Positions 4,038-17,576 of a stretch of 64,000 nucleotides of DNA are shown here, piece by piece. The DNA comes from Candidatus Kerfeldbacteria bacterium RIFCSPHIGHO2_12_FULL_48_17. Its GTDB lineage: Bacteria; Patescibacteriota; Patescibacteriia; HO2-48-17. The notes below the pieces were generated by a model. The model had not been told where the DNA came from. It saw only the letters and a program-made list of their open reading frames with translations, and made no database searches. The DNA lies in assembly GCA_001818775.1 (NCBI GenBank), contig MHKD01000042.1:41022-105021 (forward strand). Reading direction: 5' to 3'. Made by a program: the position numbers and the translations under genes. Each line of letters begins with the position of its first letter. Positions within the stretch are counted from its first letter, which is position 1.

Positions 4038-4415
4038 TCAAGAAATGCTTTCTTCGGTTTCATCTTCATCATCCTGATTTTTCACCTGGTCTTGATCAGT
4101 TGCCTTGGTTCTTTTTGCCCGGCGACGAATGGATGAAGACGAACTTTTCCTGGCTCTGAAATCACGAACAAGGCCGCCAATATGCTTAAACTCCTTAACA
4201 AGAAAGGAAATTGATTGCGCTGAAGTAAAAATTTTATCCTTAATAGCCAGAACGGCCCGTTCAATCTCTTCGATCTTCTCCCGAAATTCCTTCACCATTT
4301 CATTGCCCTGCTTGAGCAGTGTGCCGATATAGTACATGATCCAAACCAGAAAAACCGTAAATACCAAAATACAAACCGTAAGGACAATATAAAGATAATC
4401 AAGGGACGTAAGCAT
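4038..4415 (-). CDS. Small membrane protein (N-terminal TM helix, C-terminal coiled-coil and acidic/basic tail), hypothetical
   Basis: ORF track 4038..4466. Start moved to the internal Met (MLTSLDYLYIVLTVCILVFTVFLVWIMYY...). No recognisable family. Confidence 0.4.
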   Translation of the reverse strand: MLTSLDYLYIVLTVCILVFTVFLVWIMYYIGTLLKQGNEMVKEFREKIEEIERAVLAIKDKIFTSAQSISFLVKEFKHIGGLVRDFRARKSSSSSIRRRAKRTKATDQDQVKNQDDEDETEESIS

Positions 4416-4508
4416 ATTTTTTGTGTAATTTTTATTCTGTCTGAGACAACACATGCAGTATAGCATATTTTTTTATTTCGGGAAAAAATGCTAGAATAAA
4501 ACCTAAAG

Positions 4509-4666
4509 GGTCTGTCGCCGAATACCATTTCTGCTGCAATCATGGAATTTTGGCCAGAACCGCTTCAAAATTTTTCGGCTTATATTCCATATAAACCTCA
4601 AAATTTATTCAGCAATTCTGTCACAAAATTCCATGATTTCGTCACGAAAGCGTATTCGGCGACAGA
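4509..4666 (+). mobile_element. MITE-like non-autonomous element, copy A (~158 bp). Has 16-bp terminal inverted repeats, a 14-bp sub-terminal inverted repeat and an 8-bp target-site duplication.
   Basis: Terminal inverted repeats GGTCTGTCGCCGAATA...TATTCGGCGACAGAC. Sub-terminal inverted repeat AATCATGGAATTTT / AAAATTCCATGATT. Flanked by the direct repeat ACCTAAAG (4501-4508 and 4667-4674). No coding capacity for a transposase. Copy B at 16880-17039 is 158/159 identical in inverted orientation. Confidence 0.8.
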
Positions 4667-4689
4667 CACCTAAAGACAAACAAAGTCAT

Positions 4690-5565
4690 ATGGCGGAGAC
4701 AAGAATGAGTGATGCGGAATTTTCTTTCGGGTACTGGTGGGTCACGCACCGAGGGCAGCTACGAAAAACTTCCGGCATTACTCTGGTGATTATACATTTA
4801 CTTCTTATAACAACACTCGTCATCCAGGGAGTGAGTTTTGTGTTTGAAGTCATGCGCACGGCCGACTACTTCGAAACAATGGCACAGCCGGATATCGCCT
4901 ACGCCGACGTCCGAAACAAGCAACAACCGCAAAATATCCAACTGGGCGCGACCCAGGTTTTTGATTCTGATCTGGAAGGCAGAGTGAATATCGCCACGGA
5001 AATCACGAATCCCAACGAACACTGGGCCGTGAAAAAAATAACGTACAGCGCGGTGGTCAATGGCGAATTGCAGTCGCCGGAAACCGATTTCCTTATGGCC
5101 CAGGAACGCCACTTTATCACCACATTTGGCATTGAAGCGGCAAGTGCCGGCCAGGTTCAGGCCACGCTGAATGTAACGGACGTTGAATGGGAGCGCGTGA
5201 ATGCATACACAACGCCGAAAGGCAGGATAGATGTCACTGACATTGAGTTCAGCCCGAGCATTACCGTCGAAGATGCCACGAGCAGCGACCAGGTTTTCAG
5301 TCAGGCGACGGCCGACATAACCAACCGCGATATATTTACTTTCGCCGAAGCGGAATTTATCGTCGTGGCGGAAATACAGGGGGATATCATCGCGGTGAGA
5401 AGAATCATGCTCAAAGACCTTATCCCGAGTGAAACGCAAACACTGAGAGCGCAGTGGAGCAGACGGATAAGTCCGGGGGCGGAAGTGAGCGTTCTGACCC
5501 ATATCAACCTCATCGACAAAACCAACAGGAAACTCAGTTTGACACAACCCGCATCAACTGAGTAG
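4690..5565 (+). CDS. Hypothetical membrane-anchored protein with a beta-rich extracytoplasmic domain
   Basis: ORF track 4633..5565. The first 19 codons (MISSRKRIRRQT...) come from MITE sequence, so the native start is probably ATG at 4690 (MAETRMSDAEF) or 4705. One TM helix (ITLVIIHLLLITTLVIQGV), then two similar beta-rich repeats. Confidence 0.5.
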   Translation: MAETRMSDAEFSFGYWWVTHRGQLRKTSGITLVIIHLLLITTLVIQGVSFVFEVMRTADYFETMAQPDIAYADVRNKQQPQNIQLGATQVFDSDLEGRVNIATEITNPNEHWAVKKITYSAVVNGELQSPETDFLMAQERHFITTFGIEAASAGQVQATLNVTDVEWERVNAYTTPKGRIDVTDIEFSPSITVEDATSSDQVFSQATADITNRDIFTFAEAEFIVVAEIQGDIIAVRRIMLKDLIPSETQTLRAQWSRRISPGAEVSVLTHINLIDKTNRKLSLTQPASTE

Positions 5566-5582
5566 ACTATAGCCCTCACACT

Positions 5583-6689
5583 ATGAAAACCAAAGGTTGG
5601 CTCACGAAAGTCAAAAAAATCGACTGGGGTATACTTATTTTCACCGCAATCCTGGTGACATTCGGGTTGTCCATTATCTACAGCATCGGTCTCCATGGTG
5701 AAAAAACGGATCTCAGCGTATTTTACAAACAACTTGCAGCCGTCGGTATAGGGGTCGCCATTCTGATGGGGGCTCTTTTTTTTGATTACCGTTTTTTACA
5801 GCCACTGAGTTGGATAGCGTGTATTCTTGGACTCCTTTTGTTGGCTTCCGTGTTGCTTTTTGGCATCACGATCCGAGGGACAACAGGGTGGCTGAATCTT
5901 GGATTTACGACGGTTCAACCAGTTGAGCTGGCCAAGGTATTCCTCATCGTGACCCTGGCCGCTTGGCTTACCAAATGCGGCGGCAGTCTTGAACGCTGGC
6001 AGAATCTCGTAATCAGCGCGTTAATTGTCTTTGCCTACACGGGACTTGTGCTGCTTCAGCCTGATCTTGGTTCAGCCATGGTCTTTGTCGGCGTGTGGGT
6101 TATGTCGCTGTTTGTGACGAGAACCCCAAACCTGTACCGCATCGGCATCATCGTTCTTAGTATTATTTTTGCTGTGTCGAGTTGGTTTTTTTTGTCAGGG
6201 TTTCAAAAGGATCGTATTCGTGTATTTCTTGATCCGGGTGCCGACCCACTTGGTATTGGATATAATGTTACCCAATCCATCATATCAGTAGGTTCAGGCA
6301 GGTGGTTCGGCAGGGGCCTCGGACTGGGACCGCAAAGTCAGCTGAATTTTCTTCCCGAGCAGGAGACTGACTTTATTTTTGCCGTGATCGCCGAAGAAAT
6401 GGGTCTCATCGGAGCCAGCGTCCTCCTCCTGAGCTTTGGTCTGCTCTGGTTCATGATCTGGCGGCGCGCCAGAAAAACCAGCGACCTGTTTGGCATGTAC
6501 GTTCTCACTTTGGGCCTGTTTCAATTCTTCATCCAAACTTTTGTCAATATCGGTATGAATATGGGAATTTCACCGGTGACCGGTATTCCGTTGCCGTTTA
6601 TCAGCTCAGGCGGCAGCTCCATGATAGCCAGTCTCCTCCTCGTTGGCCTATTTGAAGGAATAGCGTTAAGAAACAGCGAAAAAAGTTGA
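5583..6689 (+). CDS. SEDS-family peptidoglycan glycosyltransferase (FtsW/RodA)
   Basis: Ten-TM topology and conserved SEDS motifs (GWLNLGFTTVQPVELAKV...; PEQETDFIFAV...; PLPFISSGGSS). It is the only SEDS gene in the window. The mreBCD-pbp2 cluster is elsewhere. Confidence 0.85.
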   Translation: MKTKGWLTKVKKIDWGILIFTAILVTFGLSIIYSIGLHGEKTDLSVFYKQLAAVGIGVAILMGALFFDYRFLQPLSWIACILGLLLLASVLLFGITIRGTTGWLNLGFTTVQPVELAKVFLIVTLAAWLTKCGGSLERWQNLVISALIVFAYTGLVLLQPDLGSAMVFVGVWVMSLFVTRTPNLYRIGIIVLSIIFAVSSWFFLSGFQKDRIRVFLDPGADPLGIGYNVTQSIISVGSGRWFGRGLGLGPQSQLNFLPEQETDFIFAVIAEEMGLIGASVLLLSFGLLWFMIWRRARKTSDLFGMYVLTLGLFQFFIQTFVNIGMNMGISPVTGIPLPFISSGGSSMIASLLLVGLFEGIALRNSEKS

Positions 6690-6729
6690 CACAGGGGTCA
6701 ATTAAATGATAGAGTAAAATCACTAAAAA

Positions 6730-7125
6730 TTGAGAAAAAACATGGACAACAAAAAACCAAAAACCAATCTTTCTCAGATGTTGATCCAGGGTTTGCGGCT
6801 CCTTACGCACTGTCCTTTATGCGAAAGCGACTACCAACCCGTTTCAGCCAAGGTTATAGAAGAGAAAGACAATGCGCATTTGGTGTATATACGTTGTAAA
6901 AATTGTCTCAGTTCCGTTCTTGCTGTGGTGATTACTGGTTCGGCTGGAATCAGCTCCATGTGTCTTGTGACCGATCTCAATAGCGAAGATATCAGGCGTT
7001 TTCAGTATGCTGAAAAGCTCAGCATTGATGATGTCATAGATATTCACGAAGCCGTATCGGGCCAGGACAGCCAGGACTTTATTCACTCGCTTGTAGCCAC
7101 ACAGCCATCTACAAGCATTCATTAA
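6730..7125 (+). CDS. Small zinc-ribbon (CxxC...CxxC) protein with a hydrophobic segment, hypothetical
   Basis: HCPLCESDY...IRCKNCLSS followed by VLAVVITGSAGISSMCLV. No family recognised. Confidence 0.4.
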   Translation: MRKNMDNKKPKTNLSQMLIQGLRLLTHCPLCESDYQPVSAKVIEEKDNAHLVYIRCKNCLSSVLAVVITGSAGISSMCLVTDLNSEDIRRFQYAEKLSIDDVIDIHEAVSGQDSQDFIHSLVATQPSTSIH

Positions 7126-7147
7126 ACTTAAAGGCATCAGAAAATTT

Positions 7148-7867
7148 ATGGAAGCACTCTTACTTACCAGTAAAATCCGGGAGGAAAAACGTAAAAATCT
7201 CAAAACTTTGCGTGAATCAGGCTATGTGCCAGCTGAACTGTATGGTCATGGAATAAAAAACCAGCATATTTCCGTGCTGGCGAAAGATTTTCAGAAAGTA
7301 TACCGGCAGGCTGGTGAAAATACCCTCATCGAACTCGTCATTGACAGCCAAAAGCCAGTCAAGACACTGATCAGTGATGTCCAACTTGACCCGGTTACTG
7401 ACCGCATTATTCACGTAGACCTGCAGCAGATTCGCATGGACGAAAAGATCAAAACCCACATTGAATTCGATTTTATCGGTGTTTCACCGGCAGAAAAAGA
7501 AACCGGGGCTATTATCGTGAAAGACAAAACTGAATTGGAAATAGAATGTCTCCCAAGCGACCTTATTCATGAATATAAAATTGATTTAGCGGCTTTGAAA
7601 AAAGTCGATGACAGTATCCGTGTTGAGGATCTGAAACTGCCGGGCACCATTACCATCCTTGAAAATCCTGACACCACGATCGTACATGCAGCAGCTCCGC
7701 GCAGCGAAGAAGAACTCGCCAAACTCGATGAAGCCGTAACAGAAGACGTTGAAGCCGTTGAGGTTGAAAAAACAGAAAAACCTGAAGAAGAAGAAAGCGC
7801 AGCCGCAGGTGAAGGCGAAAAGAAGGGGAAAAAAGATAAACCGGAAAGTGGAAAAACGGGAAAGTAA
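7148..7867 (+). CDS. rplY: 50S ribosomal protein L25 / general stress protein Ctc form, with a K/E-rich C-terminal tail
   Basis: N-terminus MEALLLTSKIREEKRKNLKTLRESGYVPAELYGHG matches the bL25 beta-barrel. The long C-terminal domain and charged tail are typical of Ctc-type L25. Confidence 0.85.
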   Translation: MEALLLTSKIREEKRKNLKTLRESGYVPAELYGHGIKNQHISVLAKDFQKVYRQAGENTLIELVIDSQKPVKTLISDVQLDPVTDRIIHVDLQQIRMDEKIKTHIEFDFIGVSPAEKETGAIIVKDKTELEIECLPSDLIHEYKIDLAALKKVDDSIRVEDLKLPGTITILENPDTTIVHAAAPRSEEELAKLDEAVTEDVEAVEVEKTEKPEEEESAAAGEGEKKGKKDKPESGKTGK

Positions 7868-7914
7868 AAGGGTAAAACACGCGACCCAATCCTAAACACA
7901 ATGAGTACACACTG

Positions 7915-9015
7915 ATGGAGAAAATAAAAGAACTCCTCTGGGCTTTCAAACAAAACAAAAAAACGCAAATGATTGCACTGGGAAGTGTAATCATTGCTAT
8001 TGTTGTGATACTTGGGATCCTTTTCTTTACAAAAAATCAGGATGACAGTCAGGCCACCGTGACAAATCTCAACAGCAATACCGGGGACAATCCGGAAAGA
8101 CTGCGAAGGTTTATTGATGGTGTTTTTGTGAGTTCAGGAAATGAAAATCTTCATCCAAAAGCAGTAATGATTGAAAACCTTGTCAGTACGAGGCCACAGA
8201 GCGGGCTAGGACAGGCAAATATGGTATATGAAACACTCGCCGAAGGAGGAATCACTCGGTTTCTTGCTTTCTATGCCGACGTCGAGAAACCACTCAAAGA
8301 AATCGGACCGGTGCGCTCAGCCAGGCCGTATTTTGTGGCTATAGCCGAAGAGTATGGGGCTTTATACGCGCACGCCGGCGGGAGCCCGGAAGCGCTGACA
8401 GGCATTCAGGGAACAAAAAAAATCACCAATCTTGACCAGATAAGCGGGGATCACCCCTATTTTTGGCGGGCGGACGACCGGGAAGCACCGCACAACCTCT
8501 TCACATCAACAGAGTTGTTGGAACGCGCGGCCAGAGACAAACAAGTCACGGAGTCAGGTGATTTTGATCCCTGGAAATTCAAAGACGATGCGACTTTGGA
8601 AGAACGGCCGCAGGATGGCGCAGAACTCATTCTCAATTTTTCCAGCACCGATTACCGGGTACGGTATATGTATGATAGAGAAACCAACACCTATTACCGT
8701 TACCAGGGGCAGGAAAAACACATCGACAAACTCACCAACGAACAGCTCCATCCGAAAAATATTCTTGTGCAAATGACAACAAGTGCGGTTTTGGAAACAG
8801 ACACCGGCAGGCTCAGCATCGAAACATCCGGCGAAGGAAAAGCACTGATGTATTTTGACGGGCAAAAAAAGGAAGGCACATGGAAGAAGAGCGAATCAGG
8901 ACGCACGATTTTTTACGACGAAAATGGCCGGGAAGTGGAAATGAATGCCGGTCAAACCTGGATAGAGGTCATCCCGAACGACAAAGAGATACTCTATAAT
9001 CAGACCAGTCCGTAA
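7915..9015 (+). CDS. N-terminally membrane-anchored exported protein, paralogue 1 of a tandem pair (possibly DUF3048/YerB-like)
   Basis: Signal-anchor (IALGSVIIAIVVILGILFF). Blocks conserved with the next gene: GGITRF.A.Y...EIGPVRSARPY...ALYAHAGGSPEAL...APHNLFTSTELL. The family name is from memory only. Confidence 0.55.
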   Translation: MEKIKELLWAFKQNKKTQMIALGSVIIAIVVILGILFFTKNQDDSQATVTNLNSNTGDNPERLRRFIDGVFVSSGNENLHPKAVMIENLVSTRPQSGLGQANMVYETLAEGGITRFLAFYADVEKPLKEIGPVRSARPYFVAIAEEYGALYAHAGGSPEALTGIQGTKKITNLDQISGDHPYFWRADDREAPHNLFTSTELLERAARDKQVTESGDFDPWKFKDDATLEERPQDGAELILNFSSTDYRVRYMYDRETNTYYRYQGQEKHIDKLTNEQLHPKNILVQMTTSAVLETDTGRLSIETSGEGKALMYFDGQKKEGTWKKSESGRTIFYDENGREVEMNAGQTWIEVIPNDKEILYNQTSP

Positions 9016-9024
9016 TATACGCCG

Positions 9025-10161
9025 ATGCCAAAAGAAAACAAAGAAAAGAAAAATACAGAAATAAAAATAAAGGAGACGCCCTTTTGGAAAAAATACAGGA
9101 TCGCCATTATTTTTGCGACGCTCGCGATCATCATTGCCGGTACCGGCATCACCTACGCGTACATGAACCAATCCACACCACCGGCGACAGCGAAAAAAGA
9201 AACAAAAAACACCCAGGCGGAAAAAACCACCCCGAGCAACGAACGACACCTCGACGGCAGGCGAGTCGCAATAAAAGATGCCAATAAATATCCGGTGGCT
9301 GTAATGATTGAAAATCTCAGCCCGGTACGGCCCCAAGCCGGACTGGGACAGGCGCAGGTGGTATATGAATCGTTGGTTGAAGGAGGGATAACGCGTTTCA
9401 TGGCCATCTATGACCTCAGTGAAAAAATTGATGAAATCGGCCCGGTGCGGTCAGCCAGACCCTACTACCTCGAATGGGTTTCAGAATATGACGCTCTGTA
9501 CGCGCACGCCGGGGGGAGCCCGGAAGCGCTGCAGGCGATTTCAGGTTTCAATATACATGATCTGAACCAGATCGGCGGGGCACAGGGCTATTACTGGCGA
9601 AGCGACAGCGTCCCGGCTCCACACAACCTTTTTACATCCACGGAGTTACTTACCCGTGCCATAAACGATAACAAACTCGCTGATGTAGAACCGACCTACA
9701 CTCCATGGACATTTACCGATGACCCGGAGGACAACAAAAAAAGCACGGACAAAGAAGTCCAAGCAACTGCAGCCTCGAACATCAGCATTGATTTTTCGAG
9801 CCCTTCCTACAAAGTGGAATATGCCTACGACGCGACCACAAAAGAGTACCTGCGTTCAAACGGCGGCGTACCACACACGGACAAAAACACGGAACAACAA
9901 ATTCGGGCTAAAACGGTGGTGGTTGTCAGCATACCGCCGGTTACTGATGTCGGAGAAAAGGGCAGGATCACCCTGAGTATTCATGGTGGAGGACCGGTGC
10001 GCATTGCCCGTTTTGGCGAAGTGATAACGGGCACGTGGAAAAAAGCCGATCGCACGGCGCGGACGGAATTTTTTGACGCACGTGGGGAAAAAATTGACCT
10101 GGGTCGGGGAAATATCTGGGTGGAAATTGTTCCGGAGGATAAGGGAGTGGAATTTAAGTAA
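9025..10161 (+). CDS. N-terminally membrane-anchored exported protein, paralogue 2 of the tandem pair
   Basis: Same architecture and motif blocks as 7915-9015 (roughly 45-50% identity by eye). Ends 5 nt before the ABC ATPase start. Confidence 0.55.
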   Translation: MPKENKEKKNTEIKIKETPFWKKYRIAIIFATLAIIIAGTGITYAYMNQSTPPATAKKETKNTQAEKTTPSNERHLDGRRVAIKDANKYPVAVMIENLSPVRPQAGLGQAQVVYESLVEGGITRFMAIYDLSEKIDEIGPVRSARPYYLEWVSEYDALYAHAGGSPEALQAISGFNIHDLNQIGGAQGYYWRSDSVPAPHNLFTSTELLTRAINDNKLADVEPTYTPWTFTDDPEDNKKSTDKEVQATAASNISIDFSSPSYKVEYAYDATTKEYLRSNGGVPHTDKNTEQQIRAKTVVVVSIPPVTDVGEKGRITLSIHGGGPVRIARFGEVITGTWKKADRTARTEFFDARGEKIDLGRGNIWVEIVPEDKGVEFK

Positions 10162-10165
10162 TGCC

Positions 10166-10843
10166 ATGGAAGATATACTTACCCTGAAAGACCTAAAAAA
10201 AACATACAACATCGGAAAGTACGGTTCCTTTGATGTACTAAAAAAAATAAACCTGCGCATACGAAAGGGCGAATTCATTGCCATCATGGGTCCTTCCGGC
10301 GCGGGCAAATCAACCCTGCTCCACATGATCGGACTTCTTGACAGGCCGAACAGCGGCGAGGTGGTCATTGATGATCATAATATAGAAGACCTGAGCAACA
10401 GAGAACTCGCCCTCCTCAGGCGGAAAAAAGTAGGTTTTGTTTTTCAGTCGTTCAACCTCATGCCACGCATGACAGCCCTCAACAATGTTCTGCTGCCGGC
10501 GGTATATGCCAAAAAACCACGCCGTGAGCGAATAGAAAGAGCGCAGGAGTTGCTCAAGAAAGTCGGCCTCGAAAACCGAATGCACCATAAATCGAGTGAA
10601 ATGTCAGGCGGCGAAAAACAACGCGTTGCCATCGCCCGAGCGCTCATGAACGATCCTGACATCATACTGGCGGATGAACCGACAGGTAATCTCGACAGCG
10701 CATCCGGAGAGGGAGTGATGAAACTTTTCCACAAACTCCACAAGGAAGGGAAAACCATCATTGCCGTAACACATGACACGAGCATAGCCAAACAGGCGGA
10801 GCGAATTGTTCAGATCAAGGATGGGAAAATTATCAGTAAATAA
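10166..10843 (+). CDS. ABC transporter ATP-binding protein, MacB/LolD/FtsE-type
   Basis: Walker A GPSGAGKST, signature LSGGEKQRVAIARAL, Walker B IILADEPTGNLD. Start moved from the track's 10073 to the Met of MEDILTLKDLKKTY, so that it does not overlap the upstream gene. Confidence 0.9.
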   Translation: MEDILTLKDLKKTYNIGKYGSFDVLKKINLRIRKGEFIAIMGPSGAGKSTLLHMIGLLDRPNSGEVVIDDHNIEDLSNRELALLRRKKVGFVFQSFNLMPRMTALNNVLLPAVYAKKPRRERIERAQELLKKVGLENRMHHKSSEMSGGEKQRVAIARALMNDPDIILADEPTGNLDSASGEGVMKLFHKLHKEGKTIIAVTHDTSIAKQAERIVQIKDGKIISK

Positions 10844-10848
10844 ACGGT

Positions 10849-12099
10849 ATGCTTTTTTGGGAGAATATCAAATTCGCTTTCGGGGCACTCTTTGCGAATA
10901 AAATAAGGACCCTATTAACGATGCTGGGCATAATTATTGGCGTATCTGCGGTAACCATTCTCATCGGCATTGGCGATGGCTTACGCGGCGAGTTCAGTCA
11001 GCAGGTTGAAAGCCTTGGCTCGAATGTACTGGTGGTTACGCCCGGAAAACTTGATGAGAAGAATTTTAATCCGTCAGCATCGTTTGGGGTAAGCACACTC
11101 ACAATCGATGACCTCAACGCCATTCAGGAAAAGGTGCCTTCCATAGAAAAAAGCGCTCCACTTACCCTCCTCTCCGGCACCATTATCTTCAACGGCAAAG
11201 CCGTGGTGAATCTTCTTCCCATCAGCACGACGCAAAATTATTTCAGTATTCTGGAAAACGAACTCGCAGCCGGAAAATATTTTACCGAAGAAACTCTGCA
11301 GAATAAAGAACGGGTTGTGGTGATGGGAGGCAAGGCAGCGGAACAAGTATTTCGCGGCGGAGAAGATGATACCCGCACCGAGGAAGAACTGGCCAGGGAT
11401 GCCATCGAGAAAAAGATAGAACTTATCGGCGAAGAATTTACTGTGATTGGAGTAATGAAGAAAAAAGAAGACGCGTTGAATTTTGGAGGCTCCGACACGA
11501 ACCAGGTGGTTCTTGTTCCGAGAGACACTGCTACGGAAATTACGGGGGAAACCGTCGTGTACCGTATTATAAACAGGGTGAAATCAGCCGAGGACGTTGA
11601 TGCCACCAAACAGGAAGTGCGAGAAACCATCATAGAACAGCATCATGGCATTGAGGATTTTACCGTACTGACACAGGACGATGTTCTCAGCGTATTTAAC
11701 AGTTTTTTCAACCTGCTTTCTCAGGCCATTATCGGGATTGCTGCCATCTCACTCATCGTGGGCGGCATAGGCATCATGAACATCATGCTCGTATCCGTAA
11801 CCGAACGGACACGGGAAATCGGACTACGAAAAGCGATCGGCGCGAGCGGTGGCAACATCATGTTTCAATTCCTCGTTGAGGCCAGCGCGATAAGCGTGGT
11901 TGGCGGATCGGTTGGAGTTGGACTTTCACTCCTCTCCGGGCCACTCATAACAAAATTCTTTGATATACCAACAAAAATCACGTGGGAAGCTATCATCATA
12001 GCTTTTGGGATTTCCGTATTGACGGGAATACTATTCGGGATTATGCCGGCATCAAAAGCGGCAAGAAAAAGTCCGATCGAAGCATTACGCTATGAGTGA
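10849..12099 (+). CDS. ABC transporter permease, MacB/FtsX-like, with a large periplasmic domain
   Basis: N-terminal TM, ~250-aa extracytoplasmic domain, then a C-terminal FtsX-type 3-TM bundle (RTREIGLRKAIGASGGNIMFQFLVEA). Adjacent to the MacB-type ATPase. Confidence 0.85.
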   Translation: MLFWENIKFAFGALFANKIRTLLTMLGIIIGVSAVTILIGIGDGLRGEFSQQVESLGSNVLVVTPGKLDEKNFNPSASFGVSTLTIDDLNAIQEKVPSIEKSAPLTLLSGTIIFNGKAVVNLLPISTTQNYFSILENELAAGKYFTEETLQNKERVVVMGGKAAEQVFRGGEDDTRTEEELARDAIEKKIELIGEEFTVIGVMKKKEDALNFGGSDTNQVVLVPRDTATEITGETVVYRIINRVKSAEDVDATKQEVRETIIEQHHGIEDFTVLTQDDVLSVFNSFFNLLSQAIIGIAAISLIVGGIGIMNIMLVSVTERTREIGLRKAIGASGGNIMFQFLVEASAISVVGGSVGVGLSLLSGPLITKFFDIPTKITWEAIIIAFGISVLTGILFGIMPASKAARKSPIEALRYE

Positions 12100-12529
12100 A
12101 AATAAAAGAAAAACCGAAACTCCCCTGCAAAATTTCAACCTCCCACTGGTGAAAATCCTCACAACACTCACGTACTTCTTGGGCGTAATAGCGCCGGTAT
12201 ACTTTATTCTGTGGTTTTCCACCACCAGAAATCTTCGTACAGGAATCCCGTTTTTCGGTATCCAAAAATTTTTACTCGTCACGTCAATACTCACTTCGTT
12301 CATCATTGCGATAATCGTTTACGCAAACACCAGAAAACATCAGTCAAAAAAAGAGGATTTTAAAAAACTTCTGGACGAAAAAATCATTCCCGATAACCTA
12401 ACTCAAGAGTATGTTTGGCGAAGGTACCATATACTCATCAAACTGTACATTGGGTTGAGTATCTTTTTTTGGGGAAGCGTGTATCTTATCAGCGCCTGGA
12501 TAAGCACCATCATTAGACCACTGGTATAA
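12092..12529 (+). CDS. Small polytopic membrane protein, hypothetical
   Basis: Four predicted TM helices. Overlaps its neighbours by 8 nt upstream and 1 nt downstream. Confidence 0.4.
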   Translation: MSENKRKTETPLQNFNLPLVKILTTLTYFLGVIAPVYFILWFSTTRNLRTGIPFFGIQKFLLVTSILTSFIIAIIVYANTRKHQSKKEDFKKLLDEKIIPDNLTQEYVWRRYHILIKLYIGLSIFFWGSVYLISAWISTIIRPLV

Positions 12530-13683
12530 TGTCCACACAAAAACAAAAAAATTTCAACAGTGCGGTTGCTTTACTCGTCGGCACCGCTGTCGGAGCCGGA
12601 ATTTTCGGTTTACCGTACGCAATACAACAGGCGGGCTTTGGCATAGGCATAATAGAGTTGCTTGTGCTCGGGGGGATACTCCTCTTGGTCAATTTAGCGT
12701 ACGGTGAAATTATTCTCAGAACACCGCAAAAAAAACAACTCATTGGCTACGCGGAGTTGTACCTGGGAAAACCGGGAAAATACGCCAGCCTGCTAGCACT
12801 TTTCCTCGGAATCTATGGAGCGCTCATTGCCTACACCATTGAAGTCGGTACCTTCCTTCATGCCCTGCTCGCAAAAAACATCGGGGGAACACCAATGATG
12901 TACAGTTTGTCTTTTTTTACCGTAATGGCGATCATTCTGTTCCTGGGAATAAAAGTGGTGACCGGCGTCGAAAAAATCATGGTTATGCTGATATTTATAG
13001 TAGTAGCCGGTATTCTCCTGCTTGGTATACCGCACATCGACATGAGTAATTTCATGGGCGCCCATCCGGAGAAGGCGTTTATTCCCTTTGGTGTGATACT
13101 GTTTGCGCTGGCCGCCGGCGCAGCGATACCGACGATGCGGGAAGTGCTCGACAGAGACGCCAAAAAGCTGAAAAAGGCCATTTTTGTAGGCTCCTTGATA
13201 CCGTTCTTGCTTTACCTCGGATTTACGGTTATTGTATTGGGTGTTACCGGGCCAGATACAACCGAAAGCGCTGTTTTGGGCCTTGGAAAATATTTAGGCG
13301 AGTACATTCTCTTTTCCGGAGCGATTTTCGGTATTCTTGCCATGACGACATCCTTTGTATCGCTTGCTTTCGTACTTAGCGACTCATACCAGCGGGATCT
13401 GGGACTAAAGAAGAATACGGCCAAAGTTTTTGTACTGGTATTACCGCTCATGATGGTGCTCCTCAAGGCATTCACATTTATACAGATTATTGGCATTGGA
13501 GGCGCCATACTTGGGGGCACGGAAGGAATCATCGTACTCATGATTCATAAGAGGGCAAAACGGCTCGGTAAGCGCCAGCCGGAATACAGTATACAATGGC
13601 CCCGTCTTGTAAGCATCGGCCTTGTTTCCATCTTTATTCTGGGAATTATCTATCAAATAGGCGCATTTACGGGTCTTCTATAA
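12529..13683 (+). CDS. Amino-acid permease-like transporter (APC/aromatic amino-acid permease superfamily), 11-12 TM
   Basis: N-terminal GTAVGAGIFGLPYAIQQAG motif, typical of Trp/Tyr-permease and amino-acid transporter families. Polytopic throughout. Confidence 0.55.
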   Translation: MSTQKQKNFNSAVALLVGTAVGAGIFGLPYAIQQAGFGIGIIELLVLGGILLLVNLAYGEIILRTPQKKQLIGYAELYLGKPGKYASLLALFLGIYGALIAYTIEVGTFLHALLAKNIGGTPMMYSLSFFTVMAIILFLGIKVVTGVEKIMVMLIFIVVAGILLLGIPHIDMSNFMGAHPEKAFIPFGVILFALAAGAAIPTMREVLDRDAKKLKKAIFVGSLIPFLLYLGFTVIVLGVTGPDTTESAVLGLGKYLGEYILFSGAIFGILAMTTSFVSLAFVLSDSYQRDLGLKKNTAKVFVLVLPLMMVLLKAFTFIQIIGIGGAILGGTEGIIVLMIHKRAKRLGKRQPEYSIQWPRLVSIGLVSIFILGIIYQIGAFTGLL

Positions 13684-13687
13684 AAAC

Positions 13688-15184
13688 ATGACAACGCTGC
13701 CAAAAAGTGACTTCCGGAAATACCGCGTCCTTGAAATGCTGCCTGGCATACTCGTCTGGGCGACACTGATACTCAGTACGCTACTCTCTTTTATCAGGCC
13801 CTTATGGGTGATAATTTTTATTATACTTTTTGATCTCTATTGGTTATTGAAAGTTTTTTATCTTTCAACGTTCCTGATTATTTCCTACCGTCGCCTCAAG
13901 GCAACGGTAAAAAAAGATTGGTTCACTATCGTAAAAAAACACCCGGGTTTTACAGATATCGTACACCTTGTTATATTTCCGACATACGGAGAAAATTTCA
14001 CCATCATCGACAGCACTTTCCAGAGACTTTTGCAGAGTAATTTTCCTTTGGAAAAATGCATTATCGTGGTTGCCACCGAAGCAGCTGACAGGAGAGAAGG
14101 GGAACCGACGGCCAAAAAAATTCAGAAAAAGTATGAAAAGCACTTCAAAAAATTCATTATCACCAAACACGTACTCGATAAAAAAACGGAAATACAAAGT
14201 AAGGGATCGAACATAGCGCACGCCGGTCAGGAAGCAAAAAAATACATCGACGCTCAAAAAATACCCTACGAGAATATCGTGGTTTCTGTATTCGATATTG
14301 ACACCCAGGTGCATCGTGAATACCTCAGCTATCTGTCGCACACCTATCTCAATCACCCCAACCCTACGCGTTCAAGCTATCAACCCGTTCCGGTCTTCCA
14401 TAACAACATTTGGGATGCTCCGGCCATCGTTCGCGTGGCTTCATACGGCACAACCTTCTGGCTCATGGGCGAGCAGATCCGACCGGAAAAACTTTTCACC
14501 TTCTCCTCGCACAGCATGAGCTTTCAGGCCCTTGTTGACGTTGGTTTCTGGTCAAAAGACGTTGTTTCAGAAGACTCACGAATCTTCATTCAATGCCTGC
14601 TGGAATACGACGGGGATTACACACTCACGCCGCTCTATATTCCCGTCTCCATGGACAGTGTTCTCAGTAAAACACGCATCGGTACCCTGGCGGCACTCTA
14701 CAAACAGCAAAGACGCTGGGCATGGGGATGCGAGAACATACCGTTCATGCTCTGGAACTTCACAAAGAACAAAACCATGCCATTCCGTCAAAAATTCCGC
14801 TATGTATTCACGCAAATCGAAGGTATGCACTCATGGGCCACGGCGGCGCTCATCATCACGGTCATAGGCCGACTGCCGCTTTGGTTCGCCGGAGAAACCA
14901 TACAGACCAGCGTTCTCTTTCAAAACACGCCACAGCTCCTCAACTGGATGATGAACTTCGCCCTGATTGGACTTATTTTATCCGTCATCTTCAGCACCGC
15001 CCTCTTACCACCGATCCCCAAAAAGCACGCAAAAATGAAATATATAACGATCATTCTGCAATGGGTACTGCTGCCGGTATCCCTCATTATCTTCGGCGCC
15101 ATTCCGGCGATCGAAGCGCAAACAAGACTCCTAATCGGAAAATACCTGGGCTTTACGGTCACCGAAAAAACACGCAAAGAATAA
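13688..15184 (+). CDS. Processive family-2 glycosyltransferase (cellulose/chitin/hyaluronan-synthase-like), membrane-integrated
   Basis: Two N-terminal TMs. Cytoplasmic GT-A domain with DxD (VFDIDT), a TED-like SEDSR motif and the hallmark QxxRW (YKQQRRWAWG). C-terminal TM bundle. Confidence 0.8.
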   Translation: MTTLPKSDFRKYRVLEMLPGILVWATLILSTLLSFIRPLWVIIFIILFDLYWLLKVFYLSTFLIISYRRLKATVKKDWFTIVKKHPGFTDIVHLVIFPTYGENFTIIDSTFQRLLQSNFPLEKCIIVVATEAADRREGEPTAKKIQKKYEKHFKKFIITKHVLDKKTEIQSKGSNIAHAGQEAKKYIDAQKIPYENIVVSVFDIDTQVHREYLSYLSHTYLNHPNPTRSSYQPVPVFHNNIWDAPAIVRVASYGTTFWLMGEQIRPEKLFTFSSHSMSFQALVDVGFWSKDVVSEDSRIFIQCLLEYDGDYTLTPLYIPVSMDSVLSKTRIGTLAALYKQQRRWAWGCENIPFMLWNFTKNKTMPFRQKFRYVFTQIEGMHSWATAALIITVIGRLPLWFAGETIQTSVLFQNTPQLLNWMMNFALIGLILSVIFSTALLPPIPKKHAKMKYITIILQWVLLPVSLIIFGAIPAIEAQTRLLIGKYLGFTVTEKTRKE

Positions 15185-15186
15185 AT

Positions 15187-15957
15187 ATGTCAGATCAGAA
15201 AACACCAAAAATTTCCGTCGTTATTCCGGCATATAATGAAGTCAAAAAAATCAGGCGATGTCTTACGGCTCTGCAAAAACAAAGCATAAGAGACCCCTAC
15301 GAGATTATCGTTGTTGACAATGGCAGCAGTGATGATACGGCGCCAGTTGCCCGCAAGTTTGGTGTTACGGTCCTTGAAGAAAAAACCCGGGGTGTAGCCT
15401 GTGCCCGGCAGAGGGGTTTTCAGGCGGCGCGGGGGGACATAATTGCCAGTACCGATGCCGATACGATCGTTCCCCCTGATTGGCTGCAAACAATACAAAA
15501 CGCCATGGCTGATCCAAAACGCGTCGGTGTCATGGGTACTTTTTTATTCTACGACCGGGGAAAAATATGGAATGGTTTGACAAAAATAATAACACCGGCT
15601 ATCCGCTTCATTGACTGGATCGTTGGTCATGGACAAAATCATTTTATCGGAATGAATTTTGCCGTCAGAAAGGAAGCCTTCAGAAAAAGTGCGGGGTTCA
15701 ACACCAACCTCAAATACGGTGAAGATATCGATCTTGCAAAAAAAATGAAAAAGTACGGCCGAATAGCGTATATAAAAAAAATGAGGGTCCTTACGCACTC
15801 GCGCCGGTATCAGCTCAACCTGGCATTCGCGAAGTATGTGGTGAACTTTATAAAGACAGACATTACCGGAAAACCATTTCGCAATGAGTTACCGAAAATA
15901 GAGGGAAAAAAGGAAGAAAAAATCCGAAAAAACGAAACTCACTCAGACGCTAGATAA
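15187..15957 (+). CDS. Family-2 glycosyltransferase (soluble GT-A)
   Basis: KISVVIPAYNEVKKIRRCL...IIVVDNGSSDDT...TDADT. Track ORF 14722..15957 is over-extended into the upstream gene. True start is the ATG 3 nt after the upstream stop. Confidence 0.85.
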   Translation: MSDQKTPKISVVIPAYNEVKKIRRCLTALQKQSIRDPYEIIVVDNGSSDDTAPVARKFGVTVLEEKTRGVACARQRGFQAARGDIIASTDADTIVPPDWLQTIQNAMADPKRVGVMGTFLFYDRGKIWNGLTKIITPAIRFIDWIVGHGQNHFIGMNFAVRKEAFRKSAGFNTNLKYGEDIDLAKKMKKYGRIAYIKKMRVLTHSRRYQLNLAFAKYVVNFIKTDITGKPFRNELPKIEGKKEEKIRKNETHSDAR

Positions 15958-16915
15958 TATCGACGCCGAAACCCCGTATAAACTCGCTTGCGGACATCAC
16001 TTTCCCGCCGGCGGGTTGTATTTTTTCTATGAGAAGTTGTGTCTGCCGGGCACAGGGAACAACCAGAGCGTCGGACACGTCGGACAGGACACCGGAATCC
16101 TGACTTCCCTGGGCGCGTGCCTGAACAAGTCTTAGGCGCAAACCGTCTTTTTGACGCACATGAAACACTCCTGGCCATAAAGCAAACGCCCGAATTTTTC
16201 GTTCGATCTCGGTCGCCGGTTCGGAAAAATCAACCCGGCCATCTTCCTTTGTGAGAAGCCGACTGTAGGTTGCCTTTGCGTCATCCTGGGGAACCGGGAT
16301 GACTCTCTGGTCAAGGTACTGCGGCAAAACACGGTCAAGATCACGCGCCCCGAGCTCAAAAAGAGTGCGCGATAAAGAAAAAAAGTCTTCCTGCGGGAGC
16401 AGTATATGGCTGCTTTGAGAAAGTATCGGTCCGGTATCCATGCGGACATCCATCTTCATAATGGTTACCCCGGTTGGTGAGGTATTGTGCCACAAAGCAA
16501 ACTGCAAAGGCGACGGCCCCCGCCAGACCGGAAGAAGGGAAGGATGAATATTGAGAAACCCGCTCGGGGGAAGGGACAGTATACCTTCAGGAATAATTTT
16601 TCCGTACGCAGCCGTCACAGCAACATCGGGGGATAATTTTCGCAGAATAGCAGCAACACGGGGATCCTGAAGTTTTTCCGGTTGAAAAACCGGTATGCCG
16701 TGCTGTTCGGCCGAAAGTTTCACCGGAGTTGACCGGAGCGCCTTACCCCGACCCTGAGGTTTATCAGGCTGCGTAAAAACCCCGACGACGGCATACCGGG
16801 GATTTTCAACGAGCACCCGCAAACAAGGTAAAACAAAATCAGGCGTACCGAAAAATACAACCCGAACCGGCTCAATATGGGTCTGTCGCCGAATACGCTT
16901 TCGTGACGAAATCAT
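15950..16915 (-). CDS. fmt: Methionyl-tRNA formyltransferase (Fmt), whose current start codon is supplied by the MITE
   Basis: VRVVFFGTPDFVLPCLRVL...VVGVFTQPDKPQGRGKAL and the C-terminal Fmt domain. The ancestral ATG (17052..17050, overlapping the def stop) is now out of frame. The first in-frame ATG is 16915 inside MITE copy B, giving the N-terminus MISSRKRIRRQT-HIEPV... Confidence 0.85.
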   Translation of the reverse strand: MISSRKRIRRQTHIEPVRVVFFGTPDFVLPCLRVLVENPRYAVVGVFTQPDKPQGRGKALRSTPVKLSAEQHGIPVFQPEKLQDPRVAAILRKLSPDVAVTAAYGKIIPEGILSLPPSGFLNIHPSLLPVWRGPSPLQFALWHNTSPTGVTIMKMDVRMDTGPILSQSSHILLPQEDFFSLSRTLFELGARDLDRVLPQYLDQRVIPVPQDDAKATYSRLLTKEDGRVDFSEPATEIERKIRAFALWPGVFHVRQKDGLRLRLVQARAQGSQDSGVLSDVSDALVVPCARQTQLLIEKIQPAGGKVMSASEFIRGFGVDII

Positions 16916-17039
16916 GGAATTTTGTGACAGAATTGCTGAATAAATTTTGAGGTTTATATGGAATATAAGCCGAAAAATTTTGAAACGGTTCTGGCCAAAA
17001 TTCCATGATTGCAGCAGAAATGGTATTCGGCGACAGACC
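16880..17039 (-). mobile_element. MITE-like element, copy B. Inverted relative to copy A, 158/159 identical, with a 7-bp target-site duplication.
   Basis: Same terminal and sub-terminal inverted repeats as copy A. Flanked by CAATATG direct repeats (16873-16879 and 17040-17046). Inserted 4 bp downstream of the def stop / ancestral fmt start overlap. Confidence 0.8.
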
Positions 17040-17048
17040 CAATATGCG

Positions 17049-17576
17049 TCATATACGTGTGCGTGAAGGGTCACCACCTGCGCCGCCAGCCGCGCCATCC
17101 TTAAGACCGCCGCTGACAATACGCTCGGCCTTATCAATAAAAAGAATACCGTTTAAGTGATCGACCTCGTGCTGAAAAACCTTTGCTGTGAGACCGGTAG
17201 CCTTGACATCAACAGGTTTACCGTGCCTGTCAAGAGCCTTAAGACGAACCTTCACGGGTCTCTTTACCAGGCCATATACACCCGGCACAGACAAACACCC
17301 TTCTTCCATATAGGTTTCACGTTGCGAAAAAGAAACAATCTTTGGATTCACAAAAACCTGGGCATCGTGACGGGTTTTCCCGCCCAAAACAAAAACCTGG
17401 TGCGGTGTGCCCACCTGTGTGGCGGCAATACCGATACCATCATCAGCAATCATGGTATCGGTGAGATCCTCAATAAGCGCCTGTACTTCTTTGCTGCGCA
17501 GCTTTTCAAGGGTGATGTTTTTTGCCACCTCACGCAGCCGTTTATCGGGATGTTTTAATACGGGAAGTATGCTCAT
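17049..17576 (-). CDS. def: Peptide deformylase
   Basis: Motifs GIGIAATQVG, EGCLSVPG and HEVDHLNG. Start moved to the Met of MSILPVLKHPD (track start at 17669 is over-extended). Stop TGA at 17051..17049. Confidence 0.9.
   Translation of the reverse strand: MSILPVLKHPDKRLREVAKNITLEKLRSKEVQALIEDLTDTMIADDGIGIAATQVGTPHQVFVLGGKTRHDAQVFVNPKIVSFSQRETYMEEGCLSVPGVYGLVKRPVKVRLKALDRHGKPVDVKATGLTAKVFQHEVDHLNGILFIDKAERIVSGGLKDGAAGGAGGDPSRTRI

Follow-up and report, generated by a model that had tools for sequence, protein, structure and literature searches.

We found that two near-identical sequences in the window, the whole 64,000-nucleotide stretch of Candidatus Kerfeldbacteria DNA that was analysed, are very probably copies of a non-autonomous DNA transposon (MITE), which belongs to a family specific to one CPR clade and is mobilised in trans, and that one of them, copy B, lies in fmt. 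The family is previously undescribed; the kind of element, MITE, is already known. A non-autonomous MITE mobilised in trans was also the core reading of the first-pass annotation, and it is strongly supported by target-site duplications across the family, the copy number, the copies in the closely related genome Ga0155625 and the comparison of filled and empty sites. The elements have the features of MITEs: they are small and non-coding, with terminal inverted repeats, a fixed 5-bp duplication, dispersed copies and insertion polymorphism.

Copies A and B are both 162 bp and align as reverse complements with one internal C/T mismatch, which agrees with the two near-identical inverted copies first described. 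In addition, the penultimate base of copy A differs (CAGACAC versus CAGACCC), and the copies are otherwise identical from GGGTCTG to CAGAC. An inverted-repeat search of the window found arms at 4508-4672 and 16876-17040 (165 nt, 98% complementary). Exact matches to the 15-mer GTCTGTCGCCGAATA number four in the window, one at each element end and none elsewhere, a count that no shuffle reached. The terminal repeats are present as annotated, but they measure 18 bp (GGGTCTGTCGCCGAATAC) instead of 16 bp and bound an element of 162 bp instead of about 158 bp. Likewise, the sub-terminal inverted repeat is real but is 15 nt long (AATCATGGAATTTTG / CAAAATTCCATGATT), not 14 bp. The element is non-coding, and ORFs within its 162 bp are only read-through artefacts. 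Both copies recur in independent assemblies, copy A as an exact match on ANAN16-1 scaffold_1073, and two further contigs stop inside copy A or copy B, as assemblies typically do at repeats. The parts of the two copies are as follows.

4508-4669, minus strand (relative to copy B as plus): copy A, miniature element, 162 bp; exact copy in the independent assembly L269 (1431-1592)
4508-4525, plus strand: left terminal inverted repeat of copy A, GGGTCTGTCGCCGAATAC, the family consensus
4652-4669, minus strand: right terminal inverted repeat of copy A; tip CAC versus CCC, mismatch at 4668
4538-4552, plus strand: sub-terminal inverted repeat arm of copy A, AATCATGGAATTTTG; partner at 4624-4638; the arms co-vary between subfamilies
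4624-4638, minus strand: sub-terminal partner arm of copy A; carries an ATG (4633-4635) that reads outward in frame with the downstream ORF
16879-17040, plus strand: copy B, miniature element, 162 bp; present in contig L001 and at the end of contig L002
16879-16896, plus strand: left terminal inverted repeat of copy B
17023-17040, minus strand: right terminal inverted repeat of copy B
16910-16924, plus strand: sub-terminal inverted repeat arm of copy B; partner at 16996-17010; minus-strand ATG (16915-16913) in frame with the fmt body

Insertion of the element duplicates 5 bp of an AT-rich target. The duplications in the window are these.

4503-4507, no strand: target-site duplication of copy A, left (CTAAA)
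4670-4674, no strand: target-site duplication of copy A, right (CTAAA)
16874-16878, no strand: target-site duplication of copy B (AATAT); minus strand ATATT, within fmt codons 3-4
17041-17045, no strand: target-site duplication of copy B, second copy (AATAT)

When duplication length was scanned over 111 copies, the only signal was at offset 2 and length 5, where 58 of the 111 were exact; a 7-bp reading fitted 5 of 111, and lengths 7, 8 and 9 at any offset fitted 0-5. In the dereplicated set, the 5-bp duplication was exact in 65/124 copies and matched at four or more of the five positions in 90/124, versus 1/124 and 4/124 in a shifted control. About half of the copies thus have no perfect duplication. 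The duplicated 5-mers are 91% A+T, with T at position 2 in 75% and A at position 4 in 75%, that is, a loose target consensus wTwAw. The duplications of 8 bp (copy A) and 7 bp (copy B) reported initially are therefore replaced by 5 bp; those strings are the 5-mer plus terminal-repeat bases or chance matches. Transposases of the IS1, IS256 and ISL3 types make 8-9-bp target duplications in the ISfinder family table. A transposase of one of these types had been proposed from the 7-8-bp duplications, and with a duplication of 5 bp there is therefore no ground left for that proposal.

The family extends far beyond the window. After dereplication, our census counts 124 copies, drawn from ten or more Patescibacteria MAGs. 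The pattern GTCTGTCGCCGAATACNNTTTC matched more than 109 stretches in species-representative genomes, nearly all of them Patescibacteria MAGs, and a narrower pattern matched 32 stretches in JGI metagenomes. The first 109 loci contained 384 terminal-repeat-like sites, whose inverted pairs cluster at 33, 40, 71, 81 and 157-159 bp. In total, more than 500 terminal-repeat sites were found in about 0.95 Mb of retrieved DNA from at least 10 MAGs, and the densest MAG had up to 8.3 sites per 10 kb (about one per 1.2 kb) in loci that were chosen for the element and do not represent the genome as a whole. In H43-bin112_1, 95 such sites are severed by contig or locus ends. Full-length elements are imperfect palindromes of 157-163 bp with a non-coding core; internally deleted derivatives are 33-81 bp, and many copies are truncated or decayed. 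The 18-bp end GGGTCTGTCGCCGAATAC hardly varies among 120 arms and stays the same in hosts whose GC content ranges from 29% to 50%. Sub-terminal inverted repeats are specific to lineages, each of which has its own subfamilies; the lineage of the window has at least ten full copies when the window and Ga0155625 are counted jointly. The family is restricted to a Patescibacteria (CPR) clade that includes Candidatus Kerfeldbacteria. Reports of MITEs in Patescibacteria were absent from the literature library searched. In IMG/VR, the terminal-repeat 16-mer and 14-mer gave single matches only, none of which has the sub-terminal motif or pairs credibly with an inverted end, and we would expect about this number by chance, which is our judgement and not a computed expectation.

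Recent activity, suggested by the first-pass annotation, is borne out: the window copies differ at one internal base, and Ga0155625, a JGI genome of the same or a sister lineage, carries eight full copies that are 96.3-99.4% identical to them, each with its own 5-bp duplication. In a comparison of two species, five reconstructed empty sites align contiguously with the orthologous locus of the other species. The window spacer orthologous to L153 (2423-2584) is free of the element, and on the sister contig L268 the def/fmt ATGA junction is intact (431-434) where the window carries copy B. Empty sites, which had been proposed as a check, were thus found between species (the five pairs and the L268 junction); at strain level an empty allele was found for neither window insertion, and the reconstructed empty site of copy B had no match in JGI metagenomes. 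The family has far more copies than two, and their positions are not conserved across relatives, contrary to the two observations that had been named as speaking against a transposon. The strong predicted structure described below would be explained by a conserved gene for a structured RNA, or by a regulatory palindrome, at orthologous positions. However, insertion positions are not orthologous between relatives, and the presence/absence data contradict such a role. Copies are found in both orientations and, by crude gene calling, in every intergenic context, and they carry target duplications. Rfam gave no match in the window, and in four element-rich loci only tRNAs passed the gathering score. 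We regard this explanation as highly improbable.

Copy B is not intergenic but splits fmt after codon 4 and breaks the overlap between the def stop and the fmt start.

17049-17576, minus strand: def (peptide deformylase), directly upstream of copy B
17049-17052, minus strand: ATGA overlap; the def stop (17051-17049) overlaps the original fmt start (17052-17050), now parted from fmt by the element
15950-16876, minus strand: fmt body (methionyl-tRNA formyltransferase), 3' of the insertion, beginning IEPVRVVFFGTPDF

The original fmt ATG now meets a stop inside copy B. An ATG inside copy B is in frame with the remaining fmt, and the frame of an upstream ATG at 17098 reads through the entire element, which is stop-free in that frame, into fmt. 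We infer that fmt is translated from a start codon supplied by the insertion, and apparently the gene survives on it. Translation may start at the element-internal ATG, with the product MISSRKRIRRQT-HIEPVRVVFFGTP..., or else at the upstream ATG at 17098, in which case the whole element would be read through.

Copy A has a gene directly downstream.

4690-5565, plus strand: gene downstream of copy A, 291 aa, a membrane protein with no family match; also called as 291 aa in L269

The probable own ATG of this gene lies about 15-20 nt past copy A. In the lineage of the window, an element-internal ATG is in frame with the downstream gene at 3 of 6 arm-1 ends, which is too few to judge against chance. 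Most family copies lie between genes according to a crude gene-context analysis that gives no coding/intergenic count. The context of copy B was called wrongly by the crude gene caller, whose context statistics are only indicative. Neither enrichment at gene 5' ends, a question raised by the first-pass annotation, nor an orientation bias was demonstrated; orientations in tandem gene contexts were 14 versus 9, a difference that is not significant and, with this gene calling, only indicative.

The element is predicted to fold into a rod-like hairpin, with dG -69.6 kcal/mol (z = -10.2) as RNA and dG -48.9 (z = -11.2) as DNA, in line with the long RNA stem-loop proposed earlier. Subfamily interiors are not alignable, so a global alignment with RNAalifold yielded the terminal stem alone, and an arm-versus-arm analysis was used instead. 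Agreement between arms was 0.78-0.88 versus 0.51-0.53 with shuffled arms (columns 29, 38 and 46). Palindromy spans the whole element, beyond the ends alone, and from one subfamily to another the sequence changes but the palindromic layout and the arm polarity persist. These features might indicate repeats that the host maintains for a role of the hairpin in RNA or DNA (in mRNA stability, termination or protein binding), in the manner of REP/BIME, ERIC or bcr1, and that spread through one conserved enzyme of the chromosome or through a process akin to recombination, not through a classical IS. The stability of the predicted hairpin (z about -10), the co-varying arms, the invariance of the 18-nt end over the 29-50% GC range and the lack of an IS-like partner in 956 kb all fit this explanation, and bcr1, a repeat of about 150 bp that reaches 130 copies, has a TTTAT motif and lacks a known transposase, offers a precedent (PMC6542083). 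However, target duplications of fixed length and with a symmetric preference for A+T are what staggered-cut transposition leaves behind, and they are absent from REPs. The arms would be expected to co-vary just as much if a single protein had to bind the two ends. Moreover, a promoter and terminator scan of both copies gave nothing above shuffles, orientation relative to genes shows no significant bias, and numerous copies are truncated or decayed. Host-maintained repeats are an improbable explanation.

For a MITE, a transposase must act from elsewhere. Probably a DDE-type transposase, supplied in trans, binds both ends, cuts the target with a 5-bp stagger and then joins the element ends to it. 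We searched for its gene in the window and in 956 kb around elements, that is, in DNA within about 8-14 kb of them. In neither did we find a transposase gene with GGTCTGTCGCC at its borders, and no pair of terminal repeats among the loci examined encloses a transposase. The 59 ORFs of the window all encode housekeeping or unknown proteins, and none of the genes recurrently flanked by elements resembles a nuclease or transposase. Three intervals considered as autonomous elements of 1.5-3 kb hold ordinary genes between separate elements: a methyltransferase and RNase HII (L128, 254-1755), gltX and an M23 peptidase (L172, 4156-7109) and a secreted protein (L177, 826-2619). End pairs in the '+,+' arrangement exactly 1199 nt apart at three loci are one orthologous locus, with a decayed 179-bp subfamily copy and small ORFs only. 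The ORF families that recur most often among the loci consist of housekeeping paralogues (GT4 glycosyltransferases, pilin-like proteins, response regulators, PilB-type ATPases, release factors and ABC proteins). The large unknown ORFs proved to be PBPs, adhesin-like proteins or a VirD4-like ATPase, or had no Pfam match (L185, 1307-5071; L225, 1321-3537).

The 5-bp AT-rich duplications seen here are a signature of the Tn3 family and of Tn3-derived miniature elements (TIMEs) (PMC4133298), so a TIME mobilised by a Tn3-family transposase was considered. The tip GGGTCTG-CGC matches the outer part of the Tn3 repeat GGGGTCTGACGCTCAGT, a sequence that adjoins blaTEM and Tn3 tnpA in thousands of plasmids, at 12 of 17 positions, a match that was chosen post hoc. 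Among the IS families of the ISfinder table, only Tn3 is known to pair GGG(G) ends with 5-bp duplications, which speaks for a Tn3-derived element. However, about 18 nt of the ends are conserved here versus 38 in the Tn3 type, the tip is GGG, and the inner TAAG motif is absent. Functional-looking derivatives down to 37 bp also argue against a Tn3-type origin, as does the very high copy number, whereas TIMEs are usually single-copy (PMC4133298). No Tn3-family TnpA or resolvase was found in the 956 kb: with Tn3 TnpA (1001 aa, from L267), TnpR and the IS26 transposase as queries, phmmer gave no match at E <= 10 among 4388 ORFs. In two other plasmid loci, Tn3 tnpA is truncated by IS26. A Tn3-derived element is, on balance, unlikely, though a real possibility.

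A more speculative idea, to which we give only a small chance, is that the mover is no conventional IS transposase of the same genome. It would be encoded by a conserved, domesticated single-copy gene of the chromosome in these CPR lineages, a DDE analogue of the REP/RAYT system, or be supplied by a phage, a plasmid or the bacterium on which these episymbionts live. Elements at the 5' ends of genes, with fmt as an example, would also act as portable start-codon or leader modules. A domesticated or external enzyme would account both for the invariance of the 18-nt end over hosts of 29-50% GC and for the absence of a partner beside more than 500 ends.

As non-autonomous MITEs, the elements can be compared with several known repeats. 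REPs are 20-40 nt, make no target duplication and are moved on single strands by RAYT, an HUH Y1 enzyme. Like the present family, REP/BIME are very abundant palindromic repeats, and their mobilising enzyme is a single-copy gene, not a multi-copy IS; the present family differs in its 5-bp duplication and in having no nuclease- or transposase-like gene recurrently flanked by elements. Correia/NEMIS of Neisseria, RUP of Streptococcus pneumoniae and ERIC of enterobacteria are high-copy palindromic MITEs of 100-160 bp, mainly intergenic and co-transcribed with their neighbours. They share with the present family the occurrence of full-length and internally deleted size classes, but have other terminal repeats and duplications (TA in Correia and RUP) and other host phyla. 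Rickettsia palindromic elements (RPE) occur in reduced genomes and can lie within coding sequences and be translated. Copy B, inside fmt and stop-free in the fmt frame, is similar; RPE, however, have no clear terminal repeats or target duplications, whereas the present family is mostly between genes by the crude context analysis.

TIMEs, whose cognate transposase is known, carry Tn3-type repeats of 38 bp, occur on Pseudomonas plasmids and chromosomes, and are usually single-copy, for which their authors invoke transposition immunity (PMC4133298). They resemble the present elements as non-coding miniatures with 5-bp AT-rich duplications, a G-rich tip and a stem-loop of about -70 kcal/mol, and both may adjoin genes and affect their expression. 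In contrast, the present family has 18 conserved nucleotides, copy numbers that reach hundreds per genome of about 1 Mb and no Tn3-family transposase in the 956 kb. bcr1 of the Bacillus cereus group is also dispersed, 150-160 bp long and present in tens to more than 100 copies, with a 5-nt AT-rich insertion motif and no known transposase (PMC6542083; Okstad et al. 2004). It differs in its single motif TTTAT and the recombination-like mechanism proposed for it (PMC6542083), whereas the present family has diverse wTwAw 5-mers and clear 18-bp inverted repeats.

In conclusion, the family is multi-copy, with lineage subfamilies, deletion derivatives and insertion sites that differ between related genomes. 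CPR/Patescibacteria genomes, of about 1 Mb, are usually described as streamlined and repeat-poor. Transposition is active now or was so recently in these lineages, though no transposase is visible. The family accounts for the fragmentation of some CPR MAGs, in which assemblers break contigs at the elements, and protein databases are contaminated by element-derived N-terminal extensions, such as the 382-aa Fmt call and P0001. The fmt gene provides a concrete, testable case of a miniature transposon that landed within the opening codons of a core gene for translation.

The window carries two near-identical copies of one miniature element in inverted orientation, as the first-pass annotation had proposed: in the reverse-complement alignment the stretch GGGTCTG to CAGAC differs by a single internal C/T, and the tips also differ, with CAGACAC in copy A against CAGACCC in copy B. 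The sequence features concerned are as follows.

4508-4669, minus strand (copy B taken as plus): copy A, 162 bp
16879-17040, plus strand: copy B, 162 bp
15950-16876, minus strand: body of fmt
17049-17052, minus strand: ATGA, overlap of the def stop TGA with an ATG

A repeat search of the window recovered the pair as 165-nt arms with 98% complementarity and a separation of 12.2 kb, and the 15-mer GTCTGTCGCCGAATA occurs in the 64 kb only at the four element ends. Neither copy is an assembly artefact: an independent assembly (contig L269) contains copy A without a single difference, copy B is also found in contig L001, and two further contigs break off 20 nt and 53 nt into copies, as assemblers commonly do when they meet a dispersed repeat. 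Folding bore out the predicted long stem-loop, giving an end-to-end rod-like hairpin (RNA, dG -69.6 kcal/mol, z = -10.2; DNA, dG -48.9, z = -11.2).

The window spans housekeeping genes of a Patescibacteria (CPR) genome with a GC content of ~47%, and Kerfeldbacteria MAGs with names implying 48% GC are present in the NCBI taxonomy. It encodes dnaE, ftsW/rodA, def, fmt, priA, mreBCD, ribosomal proteins, rpoA, alaS and many glycosyltransferases; tRNA and Rfam searches gave no match in it. A 392-aa ORF adjoining alaS (62775-63950, minus strand) has no Pfam or NCBIfam match. The other direct repeats of the window come from two MreB paralogues (33482-34540 and 39671-40693, repeat family D2) and two tandem DUF3048 paralogues (7915-9015 and 9025-10161, repeat family D6), and have no relation to the element.

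The two copies belong to a large family. When one genome of each species was scanned, at least 109 stretches matched GTCTGTCGCCGAATACNNTTTC against a chance expectation of ~1, and nearly all of the matches listed were in Patescibacteria MAGs.

Element-bearing sequences in the species-representative scan
H43-bin112_1, MAG
Modern_marine.mb.217, MAG
MM_PC_MetaG.mb.212, MAG
DP16D_bin.9, MAG
Kerfeldbacteria MAG
A few contigs carrying other labels

A narrower pattern gave 32 stretches among JGI metagenome contigs. In the first 109 loci, 384 sites lie within two mismatches of the terminal 15-mer, with 114 close inverted pairs among them, whose lengths peak at 33 bp (31 pairs), 40 (5), 71 (8), 81 (3) and 157-159 (51). 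H43-bin112_1 has 253 terminal-repeat sites in 305 kb, or 8.3 per 10 kb, a figure for loci picked for carrying the element and not a genome-wide density; 95 of the 253 are severed by contig or locus ends. The nearest copies are in the JGI bin Ga0155625 and in Candidatus Kerfeldbacteria RIFCSPLOWO2_02_FULL_42_19. Eight full copies in Ga0155625 are 96.3-99.4% identical to the window copies, those of the Kerfeldbacteria MAG 88-93%, and the subfamily of AT-rich MAGs ~70%.

In a further subfamily, the same terminal arms surround a different GC-rich hairpin core (GAGGAGGAAGACTCTC...GAGAGTCTTCCTCCTC), for which the sole Rfam match was a sub-threshold one to a generic 3'UTR hairpin model.

Loci of the GC-rich-core subfamily
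L264, 8760-8938
L231, 5126-5308
L242, about 5680-5853
L135, from 2278
L151, from 1313
L252, from 7976

Two contigs binned as 'Gammaproteobacteria', L203 (CAYHOD010000074.1) and L228 (CAZJPG010000012.1), carry the element together with CPR-type gene families (GT4 paralogues and pilin-like proteins) and are probably mis-binned Patescibacteria contigs. At L139 7080-7170, immediately past a truncated element arm, ATATCAATTGGAAAAAA is repeated four times in tandem in a pattern that looks iteron-like; the L139 sequence stops at 8000.

Comparison of the flanks of 111 copies at all offsets and all lengths gave a single signal: the element extends by two bases per side (GG...CC) and is followed by a 5-bp direct repeat, exact in 58 of the 111, whereas other duplication lengths at that offset occurred in 0-2 copies. 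The terminal inverted repeat is GGGTCTGTCGCCGAATAC. The duplication of 7-8 bp initially read from the window does not hold, since the 7-bp reading fits 5/111, and the suggestion of an IS1-, IS256- or ISL3-type transposase, which was based on it, is left without support in the census. Among dereplicated loci the 5-mer was exact in 65/124 and agreed at four or more of the five positions in 90/124, against 1/124 and 4/124 in a control with a 7-nt outward shift. The duplicated 5-mers are 91% A+T, with T in 75% at position 2 and A in 75% at position 4 (wTwAw). The duplications are CTAAA for copy A and AATAT for copy B, and no two of the ten lineage copies that keep both ends share a 5-mer.

The two arms are non-equivalent and keep the same polarity in every subfamily. 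Beyond the common 18 nt, arm one reads (G/T)CTTTCG and arm two C(A/G)T(T/A)TTC; a 15-nt sub-terminal inverted repeat follows, subfamily-specific in sequence and complementary within each subfamily (for example AATCATGGAATTTTG, AATCGTAGAATTTCG and ATTTCCCAGATTTCG). The variant end GGGACTGTCGCCGAATGC has the identical change on both arms. Binding of both ends by one protein would account for such concerted change, and so would selection on the hairpin.

Short forms are also present. The 33-bp form (37 bp including GG/CC) is GGGTCTGTCGCCGAATAC-GGTATTCGGCGACAGACCC. In the 157-bp AT-rich subfamily, CCGAATAC occurs as two direct copies, one on the inner border of the left terminal repeat and one immediately inside its right counterpart (...TATACCGAATACGGTATTCGGCGACAGACCC); a deletion between the two would yield exactly the 33-bp form. 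Internal deletion could similarly account for the 40-, 71- and 81-bp forms. Exact 5-bp duplications flank short forms in 12/32 and 12/25 cases, somewhat below the full-length rate, and many additional sites hold one-ended, truncated or decayed copies. In 4 of the 32 33-bp copies (L201 2850-2882 and three others), the flanks extend the palindrome without a direct repeat, as in TTAATATGG...CCATATTAA; this pattern suggests hairpin-templated rearrangement at some sites.

For each complete copy the two flanks were fused into a rebuilt empty site (GAATAAAACCTAAAGACAAACAAAG in the case of copy A, CCGGCTCAATATGCGTCATATA in that of copy B), with which all loci were searched. Five filled/empty orthologous cases were found between H43-bin112_1 and Modern_marine.mb.217, with a contiguous empty locus and a flank identity of 70-78%. 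One filled/empty pair (L214 about 4060-4330 and L230 about 40-290) shares a conserved non-coding stretch, …GATGAAAAGTRGCTCGCTTGAC…GTACAGAATCCGGCTTATA…, which may be a structured RNA gene with the element inserted in or beside it. The alaS-side spacer is filled in the Kerfeldbacteria MAG (L153 2423-2584) and element-free in the window. An exact-match scan of JGI metagenomes gave zero matches to the empty allele of copy B, so both window insertions look fixed in the sampled populations.

Copy B is inserted in fmt after codon 4. On the minus strand the site reads ...CGTATATGACGCATATT[GGGTCTG...CAGACCC]ATATTGAGCCGGTTCGGGTTGTATTTTTCGGT..., and the copy with its two duplications (16874-17045) parts the ATGA at the end of def, where the stop overlaps the original fmt start, from the fmt body. 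With the element and one ATATT taken out, the sequence becomes ATG ACG CAT ATT GAG CCG GTT CGG GTT GTA TTT TTC GGT, translated as MTHIEPVRVVFFGTP. The junction is intact in the nearest available relative, the Logan contig L268 (Fmt identity 64%), which has the same ATGA overlap followed by MSTSRRQRVLFFGTP and an equal number of residues ahead of the conserved (V/L)FFGTP; this match, together with the restored reading, places the insertion. The old ATG now opens a 32-residue peptide with its stop within the element; since the element and duplication amount to 167 nt, it is also in a different frame from the fmt body. The interval from the element to VVFFGTP has no ATG, GTG or TTG in frame, and two candidate in-frame starts are left: an ATG in the sub-terminal repeat (16915-16913), giving MISSRKRIRRQTHIEPVR..., and an ATG inside def in another frame (17098), from which translation traverses the whole stop-free element to give the 382-aa Fmt called in L001. 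The cluster representative P0001 begins with the element-derived peptide MEFWPEPFQNF.... We infer from the intact length and the fixation in several samples that fmt is still functional. A gene for a 291-aa membrane protein has its likely ATG (4690) 15 nt downstream of copy A, whose internal ATG (4633) happens to be in frame with that ORF as well. Of six such ends in the lineage, three share the frame of a long ORF, a proportion indistinguishable from chance.

All testable generic features of MITEs were found save an autonomous relative. No inverted end pair enclosed a transposase among the loci examined, and the window ORFs are all housekeeping or family-less. Searches by phmmer with Tn3 TnpA, Tn3 resolvase and IS26 transposase gave no match at E <= 10 among 4388 ORFs of at least 60 aa from 956 kb of element neighbourhoods. 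ORF families recurring across loci were considered as transposase candidates and proved to be housekeeping paralogues; large or unknown ORFs beside solo ends were housekeeping or unassignable.

The definition of TIMEs comprises 38-bp repeats of Tn3 type, AT-rich duplications of 5 bp and mobilisation by a transposase of the Tn3 family (PMC4133298). In the present family, the 5-bp AT-rich duplication and the G-rich tip point towards Tn3; the tip agrees at 12/17 outer positions with the Tn3 repeat, the sequence of which was confirmed in records from plasmids and E. coli. Against membership, conservation is limited to 18 nt, the inner TAAG is absent, and the copy number is high where TIMEs are usually single-copy; we keep a Tn3 link as a lead, though an unlikely one. 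The closest functional likeness is to Correia, RUP and ERIC, which are high-copy palindromic MITEs. Copy B, within fmt, recalls the Rickettsia palindromic elements, which are translated within genes. A further likeness is to bcr1 of Bacillus cereus, a repeat of ~150 bp that reaches up to 130 copies, shows a 5-nt AT-rich motif and has no known transposase (PMC6542083).

In conclusion, the element represents a real and recently active MITE family with a well-defined anatomy and, going by the searchable literature, new for Patescibacteria. Its interest lies in its density in very small genomes, in the breaking of MAG assemblies, in the spurious protein N-termini that derive from it and in the insertion in fmt.
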